A stretch of 64,000 nt of DNA from Minutocellus sp. GHC0000111 (lineage: Eukaryota), in NCBI GenBank assembly GCA_977018835.1, contig OZ361259.1, positions 3,410,001-3,474,000 on the forward strand, given 5' to 3'. Shown piece by piece: positions 17,836 through 43,158 of this stretch (position 1 is the stretch's first letter; every line of letters starts with the position of its first letter). The translations under genes and the position numbers were made by a program. Below the pieces are notes generated by a model. That model had not been told where the DNA came from. It did not search any database and was given only the letters and a program-made list of their open reading frames with translations.

Positions 17836-19095
17836 TTACGAGTTCTCCCGAAGGACGGAAACGACGGACTTGAAGGCGAACCACTCGGGGATGTCCTCGC
17901 CGCTGCGGAGCATCTGGCGGAACTTGGTGCCGGACAGCTTCTTGGTGTTGAGGCCGCGCTCCTCGGCCTCGTCGGCGGTGACGTAGCCCTCCTCCTCGGT
18001 GTAGACGAGGTTGAGACTGGGGACGGGGGTGACGCCGAGGCGCTCGGCGTTCTCCTTGGCAAAGTCCTGGGCGTCGCAGGCCCCGTAGAAGTCCTCCCCG
18101 GTGACGGAGGACTTGGATCCGGCCATGTCGCGGCCGATGATGAAGTGGGTGCAGCCGAAGTTCTTGCGGATCATCATGTGCTGGATGGCCTCGCGGGGGC
18201 CGGCCATGTGCATGGAGTAGGGCAGGTACTCCCACCGGGTGCGGTCGTTGTGGGTCTCCTCCTTGAGGACCTCGTAGGTCTTGTAGCGGACGTCGCCAGG
18301 GATGTCGTCGGCCTGGGTGGGTCCGCAGGTGGGATGGACGAGGACGACGCCGCCCTCCCCGACGAGGGGATCGTCGAGGGCGCGGGTGAAGAGCTCGTAG
18401 TGCGCCCGGTGGACGGGGTTGCGGCACTGGAAGGCGACGACGTCCTTGTCGTCGGGGAGGGTGGCCCGGACCTCCTCGGGGGACTTGCAGGGGAAGTCGC
18501 GGACGGGGACGTTGAGGCCGGTGACCTTGCCGCCCATGTAGTACTGGCCGCGCTCGGTGGCGACCATGAGGGCGCCGGGATGCTCGATGGAGGCGGTGCC
18601 GTAGCACTTGAGGCACTCGAGGGGCTTGTCGGGGACGTACTTGTCGGTGAACTCGACGGTGGCGATGGGGCGGTCGCCGTCCTTGAGGAGGACGGTCTGG
18701 CCGGGCTGGAGGTCCTCGGAGTCGGTGTCGAAGACGACGGGCAGGCCGAAGAGGAGGCCGGAGTCGGGCAGCTCCATGTTCTCCACGACGTTCTTGTACG
18801 TGGCCTCGTCCATGAAGCCGGTCAGGGGACTGAAGCCGCCGTTCATGATGAGCTCGACGTCGCAAAGCTGGCGGGGAGTCAGCTGGACCTCGGCGGTGCA
18901 CTTGGCGATGGCGGCGTCGACGCCGTCGGTCATGAGGTTGACCAGCTTGCCTCCGTGGGGGGTCTGCTTGGCCATCTCCAGAGCGGTGGCGCTAGCAGTA
19001 GCAGCGCTCACGGCACGAGCGGAGGAGGTCGGCTGCATCGGCACGGTAAAGGCCGAGGCGGTAGCGAAGAGGGAAAGGGCGACAGCGAGCTTCAT
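17836..19095 (-). CDS. sat: Plastid-targeted ATP sulfurylase (sulfate adenylyltransferase)
   Basis: MKLAVALSLFATASAF presequence; PHGGKLV, GGFSPLTGFM, AFQCRNPVHRAH, MHMAGPREA, HFIIGRDMAG and LSGTKFRQML motifs. Confidence 0.97.
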   Translation of the reverse strand: MKLAVALSLFATASAFTVPMQPTSSARAVSAATASATALEMAKQTPHGGKLVNLMTDGVDAAIAKCTAEVQLTPRQLCDVELIMNGGFSPLTGFMDEATYKNVVENMELPDSGLLFGLPVVFDTDSEDLQPGQTVLLKDGDRPIATVEFTDKYVPDKPLECLKCYGTASIEHPGALMVATERGQYYMGGKVTGLNVPVRDFPCKSPEEVRATLPDDKDVVAFQCRNPVHRAHYELFTRALDDPLVGEGGVVLVHPTCGPTQADDIPGDVRYKTYEVLKEETHNDRTRWEYLPYSMHMAGPREAIQHMMIRKNFGCTHFIIGRDMAGSKSSVTGEDFYGACDAQDFAKENAERLGVTPVPSLNLVYTEEEGYVTADEAEERGLNTKKLSGTKFRQMLRSGEDIPEWFAFKSVVSVLRENS

Positions 19096-19886
19096 GTTTG
19101 TGGTATTTGGTATATGATGTGTCACAAAAAGATACGTAGATGTATATGCATTGAGTAGGGAAAAAATGCAATTCAATCTCTGCTTTGTTTGGAAAGCCGA
19201 AATGGAATGGAATTGTGAGACCGATGAGGGTTGGGTTGCCAACTTCAAAGAACATGGCCAACAACGCGGCAAAGCAAGGCGCCACTCGAGATTGGAAAGC
19301 GGCCAGATGGACGGCTGTGGTGGCAAGGCGAAAAACGTACGAGTTCGTACGTATGCGACCTGCGACCTGGGTATTTGCATGCAGGAGCGTCCGTCCGTCA
19401 TCAGGTTTTTAGGCGAAGAATGAGCAGATGAGCAGGAGCAGGCTGAAGAAGGGCAAGACGCATCTCGGCAACAGTGCAATTGGCGGGACGAACTCTGGCA
19501 ACACAATCGGGCAATTCCTGCTATTGCAAAAATCGACTTGCGTGCGTCTTGTTCGATCCTTTCTCCGAGAGAGAGCAAGTCAAGTCGTTGTCGCTTGACA
19601 GACTGCGCTGAGCAATTATTAATTGTACGAGCTCGTACTTGCGCCCGAAGCGAAAAGATTTATGCAAAGAGTGGCCTCCTCCAACACACGCAAGAAAGTG
19701 AACAATCCAATCGCACGAAGAATCGCAAACCCATCACTCATACGGCCAGTATTTTGAATTTCATCTCCCTCAGTGATACTGATAATAAAAAGCATCACAT
19801 CTTGTGCCAGAATTCAAGGCGGCATCGAAACAAAGCGCGAAAAAGGCAAAAGATCCGCATCAACGCATCAGAAGCGTTTTACAGAC

Positions 19887-30110: not shown

Positions 30111-30664
30111 GGTCGAACGTGGCTACGTGATAGCAGTGAGCAGCAAGTAAAGCACAGCGCTGACTATGAAGGTGTTGACCTCTGAACGTCCTCTGGGATG
30201 GTGACCCCTCAAACTCAGCCCTCAAACAACGCAGCGCCGACCTCGCGCTGCCATGGGAGGGGCAGTATCAAAAGCTGACAATTCACGACAACCAGACGGT
30301 CCCCAGCCACCGGACTACCACCAAAAAGCGACGCCGCAACACCAGGAGGCAGCCTATCGTTGCAGTCGGACGGGAATACCTCTAGGTAGTTCTTCTGTGT
30401 GTAAACGTGTGATTGTTGTTGTTGCAGTCGGAGGTCGACTGGTTCGGGATGAGGGACGCAAATTGCAAAATGCTGTTTCGGCAATGGCAGGCGTTTCGGC
30501 CAGTTTTCGGCGCCAGGTTTTGCTCTCGTAGTGCCGCGCATAAATAATTAATTTTGCCGTCGTTGTTTGCAATTTTACGGGTAAAATACGCGTCGTATGT
30601 AGCTACGTACGAGTTACCTTCTCGCGGCCGCCGCCAGCAGATCCAAAGAAATGTTGCCAGCACC

Positions 30665-31498
30665 ATGGTGCTGATCCTCGCTTTGTTTCTCCTCCAACTG
30701 GCGGCGGCAGACGCCTTTTCGCTCGGCTTACCAGTGGAGAGTGCAGTGCATTGGACTGCTGGTCTTACCAAAATCAATAGACCAATTGTAAAAACTGCCA
30801 CCACGAAATCTTTCACTTGGACGCCGGGCATGACTTCGAAAGAGAACCCCGTGTTTCCTGCTTTGGCGACAAATGAACACTGTGAAAAATCAAACGGATT
30901 CCCGAAAAAAGATGCATTGGGTCTCGTCGTGTGGCTACTTGCAATTTCTGCATTCATAGCGATCAATGTGAAAGTAAATCCCTTCCCACAGAGCCTACTC
31001 TTGACCCTCAGCCGGCCGCAGTGGGCCCTCGTCCATGCCATCTCCAGCATGATGTTCGGCGGGACGATCCTCCTGTCAACATTGATTGAGAATCTGGTTA
31101 TATCGTCCCGAAAGAGCGCCGTGGTAAGATTTTGGTTCCTTAGTGTGCCAAGATTGGACTCGCTGGTTGTACTCCCTGCGCTAACTGGAAGCATCATCAG
31201 CGGTATTGGTCAGGCAACCATTGATTACGGCGGGATGGTAGGTGCACCGAAGCATGTGACGGGTGCAGTCCACGCTTTGTTAACATTTGGGCTCTGGTGG
31301 GGTGCCACGGACATTACGACACAAGAGCGAGCAAAGGAGTTGGCTCGGTCATTGGACGGAGAATATGACGCCTTGCTCCAAGGGGACGGCGATGCGATGA
31401 ATTTGTTGAAATGGAGACGAATAAGTAATATTGTTTCGTGTCTCATGGTGATAGGCCTGTATGCTTTGATGGTCTTGAAAGCAGGATTCGGGTCCTGA
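30665..31498 (+). CDS. Plastid-targeted multi-TM membrane protein (DUF2269-like)
   Basis: MVLILALFLLQLAAADAF presequence followed by about 5 TM helices, including LVHAISSMMFGG and the C-terminal LYALMVLK. Confidence 0.6.
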   Translation: MVLILALFLLQLAAADAFSLGLPVESAVHWTAGLTKINRPIVKTATTKSFTWTPGMTSKENPVFPALATNEHCEKSNGFPKKDALGLVVWLLAISAFIAINVKVNPFPQSLLLTLSRPQWALVHAISSMMFGGTILLSTLIENLVISSRKSAVVRFWFLSVPRLDSLVVLPALTGSIISGIGQATIDYGGMVGAPKHVTGAVHALLTFGLWWGATDITTQERAKELARSLDGEYDALLQGDGDAMNLLKWRRISNIVSCLMVIGLYALMVLKAGFGS

Positions 31499-31652
31499 GA
31501 ACGTAGCCGGCATGCATTATTTTGCCTACATGCGCTAATAAAAATAAGGTCACATTTGTATGTGCATTGTCGATATCCGGATCACCAATATCTGCTAATA
31601 TTAGACACTCTATGTTGCAAATTCTGCAACTCAACATCGAACAAGCTCTTCA

Positions 31653-34206
31653 TCACGCACTTGGTGAATGTCGAAGCTGGCGTTTGAACGCCATGCTAGC
31701 TCTCACAATGTTCCTTGTAACAGCGACCTTTTGAAGAGCAGATACTACGCGATCCTTATCACTTCGTAGTATGGTAAAATCCTTGGGAAATCTCTTTCGT
31801 AGAGCACGAACGTCGTGGGGCGACGATAACCCTGTGGCCAAGCGACAATCGCTCAGAGCTCGAATTTTCAAGTTGCTTGTGCAACCGTCGGTGATGTCGA
31901 TCCACTCGGAAAAGGAATGGGCCGTAGGAACGTGCTTCACGATTTGAGTGATGTCAGGCCCTTCTTCCTCTTCTGATATCGTAGTGAGATTGTTGCAGTT
32001 CTGATCTAGAGCCTTGAGCAGCCACGGTTTCCCGATCATATCCCCTTTCCTGAGCACTTTGATGGCCTTGTCGTCAACCTCAATTTCCAGAGTGCCGGAC
32101 TCAACCACAATGACTTGTCGCGGAGGCCCTTGTCCTTCCTCTAGGAGATAGTCCCCTGGTAAAAGTACCTGGCTGCCTTGCAATTCCCCTGCCAATGCAA
32201 AAAGGAAATCTGCTGAGCAACATTTTAAAGTTTCGTCTCGTCTTTGGATGGATTCCGAGCGGGAATAAACCGTTAGCTCCTTCTGTAAATGTTTGGGGAG
32301 CGAGGCCATTATATCTGCGTTCATCTTGGGGATTTCTTCTGCACTTTGGCTTTCACTTGCGCCTCCGCTAGATGCGACTAATCGCCTCATAACAAAGCCT
32401 TCCATTGTTCTCTTTTGTACGTCCGGAGGAACATTGCAATCCTTCATGAACGTTCCGAGTTCTGCGAGCTCTCGTTGGATTTCGTTGTCCTTGGAAGTGA
32501 GCTCCTCGAGGATATTTACCACGGCGCCAGTCATGATAGCGTAGAGGGTTACACCGCATATGTGAATGATTAGTGTACCGACTACCTCCAGGGTGGTAAC
32601 GGGGGTCGAATCAAAGTTGCCGATACCTGCTAGGCTGGTCCAACCGAAATGGATCGATCGGATGTAAGCATTGATCACACCGCTTGAGCCCAGAAGCAGA
32701 CTGGGTTCGGGGAAGAACGCGGTTGGCGTGATCTCGAGGGCATCTACTAGCTCTATTCGAGCGATGATTTGCCAAATGCACCCACTTACATGGGTGACGT
32801 ATGCAAGAGTGAGAATCAGCTTGGTGATGCGCATGATAGTCCTCTGGTTCTGATTAACTCGCTGTCGAAGTAGTAGATTGTTCTCTAAACAGTGAACTGC
32901 GTGGATGACTCTGGATAAAGCAGCAAGGCGAAGGAGACCAGCAAGGTGGATCCAGTGAAGTCCAGGTGCAAATTTGGGGTGGGTCTGTCCTTGGTGGACG
33001 AGAAAATCAAATGCTTTTTCAGAGATAAATGAACCAACGACGATTTTGTCTGTTGTCGGCCAGGATACCCACTGTGGAATAGAGATAGATGGAAATGAGT
33101 TTGTTATGTGAGATCAATACATCGGTACAGAATTCTTGGATCGCAAAATGCAAATGTACGATCGTACTCACTTGGTCCATTTCAATTGCCCGTAATTTTC
33201 GAAGAGTGTGGACTCTCAGTCTGGTGCAATTGAGGTCGAAACGACGGCGCATCTTGCTTTTCGGCTTCGCGTTGGATATGGGTCTACTACTATCACTTCC
33301 TTGAGCCGCCCTGGGCTTGACTCGAAGAGCTTCGATAATTTGATCACTGCACATATCGATCAAAAAGAGGCAGACTGCCATAGCATCGAGAATAGTAAAT
33401 ATATGCGATAGCCATGGTACCTTGGCCGCAAACCCCGCAAGTTGAAACGGCGTGAAAATAGCTAGATACAGGCCGGCCAATACGAGTAGTTCGTGCCAAC
33501 CCGTCACTGGTTCAGCCTGCAGAGGAGTTGCGGGACGCGACATGATGCTCGCTAGAGAAAAGTAGACTAACTCCCACGCTTCACTAGTCTCTTCATCCCA
33601 GCGCTGGGGCCCAACTTTCTCTCTAATGGTCGCGGAAAGGATACGAAACAAGTTTTTGTAGTGATCGTCAGAAATTCCGGCAGCGCGATGGGTCTTTCCA
33701 AGGCTTCTTAGCGAAGGGATGACACTTTCCATGTCGTTCAGGCCAGCAATAATGTTGCCCACGGCAGTCATTACATGGATGGCGTGTACACGGAGCGATG
33801 GGCATTGCCGCAACTTCTCTTTCCTCTGGTCGGGTGGAGCTTCCAGATACGATCGACCATACGGAAGGAGCGTCAACAGTTCAGGATTTTTGTCAAAGAT
33901 GTTTAGGAAGAACCTCAAACCAAGGTCCTCAATATCATTCGACACAAGGGACCACGACTCTTCTACTCGTTGGCATACTGATTCTGGCAGAAAGTGACGC
34001 TTGTTGCTATGTGTGGAGGATGAAGATGTCGAAGAAGTTTGGGAAGACATCGAATTAGCAGAGGAGTCACTGTCTCGTCGGCTCTTTCGTCGTCGTCGAG
34101 TCTGTGTCTGTTCCTGCTGCAGCAGATGGTACAAAGGATTCCGTAGGTCACCAGCGCGCAGATTGTCGTCCTCAAGGAGGATTGGCGTTGTTGCTGTCGT
34201 TGTCAT
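31653..34206 (-). CDS. Globin-fused cyclic-nucleotide-gated-family ion channel (globin + S1-S6 + C-linker + CNBD-like); exons 34206-33172 and 33071-31653, 817 aa
   Basis: Globin: ESWSLV…LGLRFFLNIFDKNPEL…LRVHAIHVMTAV…LRSLGKTH…HY…WDEETSEAW. A 100-bp GTGAGT…CAG intron (33171-33072) splices in frame into the channel. Channel motifs: S4 LLRLAALSR, pore YIRSIHFGWTSLAGIGNFDSTP, S6, C-linker ELGTFMKDCNVPPDVQKR…MASLPKHLQKEL and CNBD LLPGDYLLEEG…VVESGTLEI…LRKGDMIG. Confidence 0.9.
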
Positions 34207-35024
34207 GGTTGAAGAGCTTTGCGTTATTGTAATGGGTGTATGCTACCGATGGTACCACGCTGGCGTCAGGGTTCAGGGTCGATGTTTCAAATGTTAAGAG
34301 GAAGTTCCGGTCTTATATTATTGTTATTTTATGGGCACATGCCCAATACAACCGCATTTATCGGCCGTCAGGTCGATGTCTGAAAAAAATCCGTCTTGGG
34401 GCTGCTTCTCGTTTTGAACGCGAAAGAAAGTACAGGCGCCGAAGATAAATTGTTACCCCGAAGTTACCCTTAGGGTTATCCGACGCCGTCGGCGCAAGAG
34501 ACATCGCCGACGTGACATCGCCGACGCAGCAGCACATGTTACTGCACCGGTTAGCTGCTGCCAGAGCAAGCCGAGCTATGGAAATAGGGCCGATAGAGCG
34601 GGACTTCAATTCGAGGCATACGGATTCTCGATCAGTGATCATATAGATCTGTAACAGTGGTGCTTTGAACATGACAACGAACGGGCAAAAGCTCATCGGT
34701 CCTGCCGTCCTGCTGGTTTGCTGCCTGCCTGCCGATGAGAGGAGGAGAGAGGATATGACTGGCATGCATATCTTGCTCAAAAGTCACTGATAAAAAGCTA
34801 CCGCACGGCAGTGAAAGATCTTTGTGCTTTGGTACAGCGATTCGATCCAAGTCATTCAATATTCCTTTGGCTTCGATACTAAATCAGATCTAGACAAAAG
34901 AAATCAAGATGTATGTGTGATTGTTTTGTTACAATATCCCTCTATTTTTTCATGTAGGGTTTCCCATGTGAATATGGAGATTTCGAGTTGCTGCACCCGT
35001 CCGTGCGCGTTTGTACAAAGCAAA

Positions 35025-41313: not shown

Positions 41314-41652
41314 GGTTTTTTTATTGTATTCTCTTCGAGTTGTATGTATGTATGAAGTGCTTCAGTTGTGGCATTTATTGTGAATTATGAGGTTTGTGGC
41401 GGGTCCGCCATCGCCAAAGGAAGAGATCCAAAAAACGGCACAGACCCGATCGGATTTGATTTTGCGCACCCAGCCTTGATTTGTTTGTACGTACGAGTCA
41501 GTACGTGTGAGTCGATTGGGTCTTATGGATGAGGACCCTCATGTTGCTTTCGGGGTCTACAGCGTTCCATCGCCAAAGTAGCGAAGAACTTTTCTACCAA
41601 TTGGTAACAGGGCCTCATAAACGACGCCTCCTTCGCATTTATTTGTGCCATC

Positions 41653-43158
41653 ATGAGATTTCACATCGCATCTTCAGCAGCGTCGCTGCTCCCTCTTATG
41701 CAGTTGGCGTCTTCACAGTCGTATTTCAATGCTGGTCGATGTCCGCAACCTCCGTCTGACAACAACGACAAGAACTGCCGCTGCATTGACGTCAAGGATT
41801 ATGACGATCTCAAAGGAGCCATCGAAAGAGTCAAGGATATGGAGTGCAAGTGCCTGCGACCCTTCTCGGTAACCAAATCTCCGCAAGAGTCGCCGATCGA
41901 AATACACGATGTGAAGGGCATCACGATCCAGTGCCAAACACTCGGAGGGTGTGAAATCAATGGTCCTGGCACTCACATAGTCATTAGTGGAGAAGATACT
42001 GAGGCGACCATATCTGGATTTCACTTTCGCGATGCCACCGAAAGTGCAATTGTCATTGCCGACGGCACTGGAAGTGGTCGCCGTGGCGATGCCGATGATG
42101 CGCGAGATCAAACCATATGCGACAGCAGCTTCACAAACAATAAGAACTACTGGCATAATGGAGGTGCCGTCAAGGCCGGTGCAGCCACGAGTACTTACAT
42201 CGCCAAGTCAACATTCGTCTCGAACAAAGCGGCTCGGATGGGCGGTGCAGTCAGCGGAGAATCGAGCAAACTGACCGTCCTGGAGTTGACCTTCTCGTCC
42301 AATTCGGCAGCTTTGGGAGGTGCGGTGAGCTCAAATCAGCCAGATTCCACCCTGATTCTGTTGGACAATGCATTCGACGATACCAATGTGGCAGGGCTCG
42401 GGTCGGCATATGGCCCTGCCGTTGCGGCAAACGGTCTTGTCCGAGATCTTGGAGGGAACGTGGCCAACCCGAAAGACTTCATGTGCCTGGGCTGTACGTT
42501 GCGGACTGGACACGAGATCCAACAATACAATCCCAGCTTGGGCCATTATGATGGAGACAATGGTCAAAATGAGCGCAATCGTTATGGCAGTAACAATGGG
42601 ATGGGAGGAAATCCAGGAACAGTCGTTGATGAGTTGAATGAAAACGGAGGTAATCCTGAATTCTTGGAATACGAATTATACGACGAGGATGACGAATGGG
42701 GCCCATTCCATTTGAAGCTATATTTTGGCGATGGCTACCAATGGCAGGGATTGACGAAGGATCTCAATGTTTGTCTTGAATATAAATACAGCTCGAAGAA
42801 TGTCGAAGGAAAGGATGACCCAATGATGCTGAACGGATGTAATGAAGACAAGGACGAGCAAAAATTTATTGCCCGTGGCGACGAGACGATCCGCCTGGCG
42901 GAGGATGACGACCTATGCATCACGTACGTCGTTGCGAGAGGTCTCGGCGTTCATGAGTGCAATGGATCTATCTTTCAGCAGTGGGATCGCGTGCAAAAGT
43001 CTGGCCAGTTCAAGATCTCGCCAGCGGTAGACCACAATAGATGCATGACGAACCACCATCATCCCAGAGAGAAAGAGAGAGTGTATTTGGACTGGTGTCA
43101 TCTCGCTGAAGATGGAGATACTGCGTACTGGACTTTACGGTGGAATGAGAGTGACTAG
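41653..43158 (+). CDS. Secreted beta-helix (GGAV/FxxN) protein with C-terminal ricin-B-like domain; intronless paralogue of the adjacent divergent gene
   Basis: Shares CRCI…KDYDDL…CKC…CEINGPGTH…ATESAI/V…YGPAVAANGLV with the neighbour. The C-terminus has ricin-type C…C…QxF/QxW units. Confidence 0.8.
   Translation: MRFHIASSAASLLPLMQLASSQSYFNAGRCPQPPSDNNDKNCRCIDVKDYDDLKGAIERVKDMECKCLRPFSVTKSPQESPIEIHDVKGITIQCQTLGGCEINGPGTHIVISGEDTEATISGFHFRDATESAIVIADGTGSGRRGDADDARDQTICDSSFTNNKNYWHNGGAVKAGAATSTYIAKSTFVSNKAARMGGAVSGESSKLTVLELTFSSNSAALGGAVSSNQPDSTLILLDNAFDDTNVAGLGSAYGPAVAANGLVRDLGGNVANPKDFMCLGCTLRTGHEIQQYNPSLGHYDGDNGQNERNRYGSNNGMGGNPGTVVDELNENGGNPEFLEYELYDEDDEWGPFHLKLYFGDGYQWQGLTKDLNVCLEYKYSSKNVEGKDDPMMLNGCNEDKDEQKFIARGDETIRLAEDDDLCITYVVARGLGVHECNGSIFQQWDRVQKSGQFKISPAVDHNRCMTNHHHPREKERVYLDWCHLAEDGDTAYWTLRWNESD

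Follow-up and report, generated by a model that had tools for sequence, protein, structure and literature searches.

A globin joined to a CNBD-superfamily channel in Minutocellus sp. GHC0000111, a candidate for haem-dependent gating

The window, i.e. the whole stretch of 64,000 nucleotides that was analyzed, harbors a minus-strand locus at which a globin and the helices of an ion channel seem to be encoded together. This raises the question of whether both belong to one protein and whether the haem of the globin might control the flow of ions. Two overlapping reading frames (33019-34242 and 31653-33113, minus strand) are present, and their overlap requires one frame-changing intron. Removal of 33171..33072 by splicing yields a product of 817 aa with the following features:

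34206→31653, minus strand: whole gene, with the ATG at 34206 and the TGA ending at 31653
33172..34206, minus strand: exon 1 (aa 1-345), encoding a low-complexity N-terminus, the globin, the linker, S1-S2 and a basic S2-S3 helix
33072..33171, minus strand: intron of 100 nt, GT-AG, phase 0, reading CAA/GTGAGT...TTCCACAG/TGG, RNA-supported
31653..33071, minus strand: exon 2 (aa 346-817 and stop), encoding S3-S6, pore, C-linker, CNBD-fold domain and C-terminal helix
33535..33987, minus strand: 3/3 globin (aa 74-224), from Pfam PF00042, PDB alignments and an orthologue model
codon at 33786, minus strand: distal His141 (E7)
codon at 33690, minus strand: proximal His173 (F8)
33496..33540, minus strand: globin-to-S1 linker (aa 223-237), ending in a conserved E-P-x-x-G-W motif
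33337..33498, minus strand: S1-S2 (aa 237-290), with hydropathy peaks at 240-258 and 269-287 and a profile alignment to S1-S2 of KCNH5/KCNH1
32847..33071, minus strand: S3-S4 (aa 346-420), with Arg393 and Arg399, then His402 and Cys406
32472..32846, minus strand: S5, pore helix, filter and S6 (aa 421-545), from alignments to Eag1 and CNGA3 and from family counts
32627-32610, minus strand: filter G494-I-G-N-F-D499
32172..32471, minus strand: C-linker (aa 546-645)
31767..32171, minus strand: CNBD-fold domain (aa 646-780) with an acidic insert and a degenerate phosphate-binding cassette (Lys693 in place of Glu, no Arg)

Among all GT/GC..AG pairs of 40-400 nt, 187 leave an open product, and the pair 33171..33072 has the best consensus. 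Exactly these 100 bases are absent from RNA contigs, in which 33071 is joined to 33172 (ends CT..AC on the plus strand). The alternative pairs were rejected because the RNA contigs show the 100-nt joint. It occurred in two of the four runs of the first run set, which belong to two studies (X4 and X2). The short-side overhang is 56 letters in X4 and only 22 in X2, and more than 31 letters on both sides of the joint are present in the X4 contig only. None of the four runs of the second set showed the joint, and its three RNA runs contained no intron-crossing piece. The single spliced gene with one 100-bp GT-AG intron in phase 0, as proposed in the earlier note, is thus supported by RNA contigs of two studies. 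The proposal that the globin and the first transmembrane helices share an exon was confirmed as well, as exon 1 encodes the protein from the N-terminus through the globin and S1-S2. Transcripts separating the globin from the channel had been named as evidence against the fusion; instead, RNA contigs run uninterrupted from the globin into S1 (X2 33396-33824, X1 33387-33636 and X5 33429-33807). Upstream, RNA contigs reach 34340, beyond the ATG, and the choice of start codon agrees with relatives beginning with MTTT or MATT. Most of the RNA runs are metatranscriptomes of marine or sponge origin, and their contigs indicate expression but not its level. A contig of 4447 nt from X9 covers 30505-34949 with the intron retained; it is DNA-like, its library type is unrecorded and it possibly stems from the same source as the window, so that it is no independent support.

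That two adjacent genes were joined erroneously during assembly or gene prediction has a probability close to nil. The whole gene is spanned by no single RNA contig in either run set, which would fit such an artefact. However, the shared exon and the RNA-supported splice joint argue against it, as do intron-free relatives of 814 aa and 868 aa on contigs of 2.7-2.9 kb. In the relative L001, all three introns lie elsewhere than the intron described here, and the sequence from His F8 through S4 is contained in one exon. Together with the 38 fused chains described below, this refutes the artefact for practical purposes.

The neighboring genes encode an AFG1 ATPase, a UCH peptidase, a membrane protein without match and an EF-hand protein, which suggests that they form no functional cluster. 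The convergent neighbor at 30548-31498 (plus strand) is a frame of 316 aa whose N-terminus resembles a signal sequence and which contains several hydrophobic helices; it is covered by RNA contigs and has no Pfam match. An ATP sulfurylase is encoded at 17836-19659 (minus strand). The frame at 41608-43158 (plus strand) matches a beta-helix weakly and exceeds the cut-off for a ricin-type beta-trefoil lectin domain; its predicted product is probably a secreted carbohydrate-binding protein.

The fusion is not confined to this locus. When 1.84 billion representatives were searched with a profile, 6640 matched at E 0.001; the best 150 matches were examined. A globin and channel helices on one chain were found in at least 38 of 153 retrieved proteins, using profiles derived from six family members, whose own matches follow from the way the profiles were made. 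The architecture search proposed in the earlier note thus identified the fusion as more than a one-off. Two of the 38 chains are not independent: P0006 belongs to the same cluster as P0004, and P0020 stems from a near-identical strain, with 3 differences in 395, and represents its unspliced exon-1 frame. About 17 of the fused chains are nearly full-length, and 18 extend from His F8 past the filter as far as the cassette (one of them, P0047, by a misalignment of its tail). Word-based searches retrieved five fused relatives, one of which, KAL7467782.1 from the diatom Conticribra weissflogii, groups with the window protein at SH 98. All chains with family-like S1-S4 and no globin match begin within about 35 residues of the match, and thus look cut off rather than globin-less. 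A search for shorter homologues (30-273 aa) found one fragment, and a scan of 44 of 64 metagenome parts found at least one locus. The ESM Atlas, searched with P0001 and P0013 and with small clusters outside the search, returned only Ion_trans/cNMP clusters (0.89-0.90), none of them with a globin. The nearest non-family globins among the matches listed occur in tandem multi-globin proteins that contain 6 to 14 repeats (P0010, P0023, P0024, P0036 and P0073). P0010 harbors 12 globin repeats in 1842 aa, and several of these proteins have a histidine at E7. Among the matches listed, many of the nearest globin-less channels consist of CNBD-channel repeats in tandem and are 1300-2900 aa long (P0071, P0074, P0076, P0082 and P0084), and several of them have TVGYG filters.

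Of the three Pfam domains expected for the product, the globin was found well above its cut-off (PF00042, 45.9 bits against 22, E 9.6e-12), whereas Ion_trans (17.7 against 25) and cNMP_binding (25.2 against 27.5) stayed below theirs in the exon-2 frame of the window. The proposal of a complete 3/3 globin is supported by this match and by the model of the orthologue P0001, whose globin superimposes on cytoglobin 4b3w with a Z of 20.9 and an rmsd of 1.8 over 150 of 154 residues. The closest solved globins in the PDB are Hell's Gate globin I, class 1 phytoglobins and neuroglobin. By sequence, the closest are flavohaemoglobin-type globins and class 1 phytoglobins, and the NCBIfam matches belong to the F/M family. 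No sensor-type (protoglobin-like) domain was found, PF00042 being the sole match at E up to 0.1. Judged by these matches, the globin is a myoglobin-like or F-family member of the neuroglobin and phytoglobin kind and lies outside the S family, so the likeness to bacterial sensor globins implied by the earlier note was not upheld.

Helix labels were taken from PDB alignments plus the usual globin numbering, and residues were counted in 82 rows comprising the window protein, 37 fused chains and 44 fragments picked by eye; this selection excluded tandem multi-globins and other channels as well as P0006 and some nine short fragments. The window globin has Phe100 at B10, Leu114 at CD1, His141 at E7 and His173 at F8. 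The F8 histidine is present in 46 of 47 rows, the E7 histidine in 41 of 42, where the exception is a stray-aligned fragment without globin, and the B10 phenylalanine in 36 of 42. A Phe at B10 combined with a His at E7 is common to neuroglobin and class 1 phytoglobins. The conservation of the ligands points to strong selection on them, and the predicted globin very probably binds haem, with a coordination that is probably bis-His. The CD1 position is occupied by Phe in 36 of 42 rows and by Leu in six, i.e. the window and five close relatives, and Leu is confined to the subclade of the window. This indicates an atypical haem pocket in that subclade. Leu is tolerated at CD1 as a third choice, according to the part of PMC1457004 drawn on here. 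Residue 181 (window 33666) is Asp in the window and Tyr in P0020, and the RNA contigs of three runs differ there too, which is a strain or allele difference.

The Leu at CD1 bears on whether the globin might be structural only, acting in assembly or trafficking or, like the HCN domain, as a fixed brace, with haem constitutive or absent. Globins without haem exist (described in the consulted section of PMC8717448). However, both histidines are nearly invariant at an average identity below 40%, and the loss of the nucleotide motif, described below, would leave such a channel without its ancestral ligand input. A purely structural role thus appears quite improbable.

The channel part comprises S1-S6 with a pore helix, followed by a C-linker and a CNBD fold. 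PDB matches of exon 2 include Eag1 (E 4e-17) and CNGA1 (E 1e-11). The filter aligns to SVGFGN of Eag1 and TIGETP of CNGA3; it lacks both the K+-channel aromatic-Gly pair and the Thr. In the family it has the length of a K+-channel filter and is one residue longer than that of CNG channels. Glycines are retained at G494 and G496 (39/40 each) and in S6 at G518 (41/41) and G527 (39/45), as in a working pore. Position 497 is Asn in 21, Asp in 10 and Gly, Ala, Ser or His in 9 of 40 rows, position 498 is bulky and variable, and position 499 is Asp or Glu in 35 of 40. Position 497 corresponds to the filter Glu of CNG channels, and its variation means that Ca2+ permeation is not assured. In S4, the two arginines are found in 37/44 and 41/43 rows, followed by His402 (32/43) and Cys406 (39/44). 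They are the only two basic residues of S4 in the window, where the range across the family is 1-5. The product is likely a subunit of a tetrameric cation channel, probably a non-selective one. That the predicted channel conducts ions, with a pore that is probably not K+-selective, is considered quite probable. Alternatively, the protein could be a non-conducting receptor or silent subunit that passes a conformational signal to partners or conducting subunits. The variability of filter positions 497 and 498, the low and variable charge of S4 and the weak Ion_trans match are compatible with this alternative, but the pore is the best-conserved part of the channel, and the conserved filter glycines, pore helix and S6 glycines make it rather improbable.

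The C-terminal domain differs from a canonical CNBD in its phosphate-binding cassette. The position of the cassette Glu is occupied by Lys in 33 of 43 rows and by Glu in only one (P0042), and the aligned Arg column contains no Arg in 38 rows, although P0005 has an Arg near this position. The complete motif GE...RxA was found in none of 39 family rows, whereas 15 of the 18 nearest globin-less channels among the matches listed possess it, one match in any repeat being counted. Thus, the globin-bearing group coincides with the group without the nucleotide motif. The domain has presumably lost the ability to bind cyclic nucleotides. Beyond it, the C-terminal helix (window 31658-31766, aa 781-817) is long, basic and amphipathic and is kept in several members; presumably it resembles a calmodulin-binding or coiled-coil segment.

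Globin and pore are equally conserved across the family. Among 16 near-full-length members the mean pairwise identity is 0.387 for the globin, 0.406 for the linker, 0.390 for S5-pore-S6 and 0.360 for the CNBD-fold domain; the S2-S3 loop reaches only 0.207 and the N-terminus 0.178. Trees of the globin and of the channel have four groups in common, which indicates that both parts descended together, and disagree in the weakly supported placements of P0011, P0012, P0015 and P0016. Of the channel domains, 22 from the family fall on one side of a branch separating them from 34 globin-less repeats (FastTree, SH 99, midpoint root). The family globins do not fall on one branch of the globin tree, where two changes are needed and few columns are available. 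The simplest history would start from a CNBD channel to which a globin was added at S1 and in which nucleotide binding disappeared, in either order.

The junction between both parts is short and of fixed length. The globin ends only about a dozen residues before S1, and the distance from Trp211 (globin H8) to Trp237 preceding S1 is 27 residues in 33 of 38 chains. Within the linker, E232 (41/46), G236 (40/46) and W237 (42/46) are conserved. This spacing is relevant to the possibility that the globin is a tethered enzyme, e.g. a NO dioxygenase, nitrite reductase or redox relay, by which local NO or redox conditions are set, while the gate is driven by voltage, calmodulin, pH or a modified cysteine at the end of S4. 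The kinship to flavohaemoglobin-type globins and class 1 phytoglobins would suit such an enzyme, as would the conservation of Cys406 and the basic, amphipathic C-terminal helix for the proposed modes of gating. In addition, NO-synthase-fused globin domains are reported to make nitrate in the portion of PMC8728061 considered here. However, a mere tether would not need a fixed spacing, and no fused reductase domain was detected in the 13 near-full-length members or the five word-search relatives scanned. A tethered enzyme on an otherwise gated channel is thus regarded as unlikely. The S2-S3 loop contains a long basic helix (window 33187-33276, aa 311-340), predicted with high confidence and absent from KCNH in the alignment. 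This helix could contact the globin or the membrane surface.

The AlphaFold2 models represent the orthologue P0001, which is 76-77% identical to the window protein, and not the window protein itself. The model built from 85 rows (pLDDT 82.6, pTM 0.68) includes the globin and six long membrane helices as well as the pore helix, the C-linker and a beta-roll; it supersedes an earlier model from seven rows that was poor outside the globin (pLDDT 51). In fold searches with the channel part, CNGA1 (E 1.3e-13), Eag1 and HCN rank first. Over the whole channel part, the TM score to CNG and HCN chains is about 0.3 with an rmsd of 16-19 Å, so that the packing of the domains is not established by this model.

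Taken together, these features slightly favor a cation channel in which the ligand sensor was exchanged, a bis-His globin replacing the cyclic nucleotide, and in which the gate is under ligand or redox control. In the proposed mechanism, the cytosolic globin would hold haem between His173 and His141, probably in a six-coordinate state. Binding of NO or O2, or a change between Fe(II) and Fe(III), would displace the distal histidine and shift the globin helices. The motion could be transmitted from helix H via the short linker of fixed length to S1 and the S1-S4 bundle and on to the S6 gate. A second route to this gate would perhaps be a contact of the globin with the ring formed by the C-linker and CNBD fold, in which the C-terminal domain, devoid of nucleotide binding, would act as a gating ring. 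The open pore would pass Na+, K+ or Ca2+ and thereby depolarize the membrane or raise cytosolic Ca2+. The histidine pair by itself ranks NO and haem redox state above bulk O2 as the presumed signal.

The view of the earlier note that no characterised globin-channel fusion is known agrees with the literature searched, which gave no description of one; reviews of protist and algal globins could list such chimeras. The chances are about even that the proteins form an undescribed family of eukaryotic channels in which O2, NO or haem redox state drives ion flux directly, without an intervening enzyme or second messenger. Ion channels are mentioned in a 2025 review as possible outputs of one-component gas receptors, for which the passage concerned gives sGC and DosP and no channel as examples (PMC12755159). 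The globin-channel family provides a ready-made candidate. NO and Ca2+ constitute a stress-surveillance loop in diatoms, as stated in the part of PMC1370914 used here, and the table of a 2024 survey has no CNGC entry for any of 14 diatom genomes (PMC11085791). If that table is taken as a guide, the globin-channel clade would be an overlooked route of cation entry and, if the proposed mechanism is true, a candidate NO-to-Ca2+ link in diatom stress signaling. The family might also offer a natural starting point for channel tools that respond to gases or redox state, and it would illustrate cleanly how sensor domains are swapped as channels evolve. Gating by the globin, if demonstrated, would be categorically new in mechanism.

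In comparison with known channels, the family belongs to the CNBD superfamily, as the earlier classification as a CNG/KCNH-family channel implies, but its filter, its cassette and the lack of a PAS domain set it apart from KCNH and CNG proper; on these sequence features it is a clade of its own. KCNH channels (Eag1/KCNH1 5k7l, KCNH5 7yid and hERG) match the family profile best (E 4.7e-34), in an alignment that starts with S1 and includes the CNBD fold. They likewise combine an N-terminal domain of a sensor fold with a C-terminal domain without the Glu and Arg of the nucleotide cassette, whereas the globin-channels have no GFG K+ filter and a weakly charged S4. The K+ signature (T/S)VGFG is absent, the window reading GIGNFD, and in no family row does an aromatic-Gly pair follow the second Gly. 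No PAS (eag) domain was found in Pfam scans of the window and relatives, and the globin is present instead. In KCNH channels, the PAS domain is separated from S1 by a long linker, whereas the globin lies about a dozen residues from S1 and thus closer to it than the PAS domain, which the earlier note had placed at this position.

Animal CNG channels (CNGA1 7rhl/7lft, CNGA3 and TAX-4 5h3o) match the profile almost equally well (E 3.9e-33). They share a low-charge S4, a non-K+ filter with I-G-(acid/amide) and the best fold match; they differ in that the globin-channels lack the cassette Glu and Arg and carry a fused globin. The shortened CNG filter TIGE-TP does not occur in the family, where the filter has one more residue and Asn, Asp or another residue instead of Glu, and the cassette GE...RTA is found in 0 of 39 family rows. 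HCN channels have the same order of six transmembrane helices, C-linker and CNBD, and the HCN domain is a small helical domain abutting S1. In the globin-channels the abutting domain is a globin, and the CIGYG filter, the highly charged S4 and the cAMP cassette are all missing.

Globin-coupled sensors, among them HemAT, globin diguanylate cyclases and kinases, show the same one-component layout, in which an N-terminal globin precedes a C-terminal output, and the channel portion would accordingly be the output of the globin. Their globins, however, are of the S family and their outputs are enzymes, MCPs or regulatory domains; a channel is not among the outputs given in the relevant text of PMC7475203. 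Neuroglobin and phytoglobins share His E7, His F8 and Phe B10 with the window globin; these proteins, like cytoglobin and Hell's Gate globin I, are stand-alone and soluble, whereas the window globin is fused and has a Leu at CD1. Haem and its gas ligands can also alter the gating of BK/Slo1, Kv1.4, KATP and EAG-family PAS channels, in which haem sits loosely on short motifs or non-globin domains. The difference from these haem- or CO-modulated channels is that here a dedicated globin is built into the channel subunit itself.
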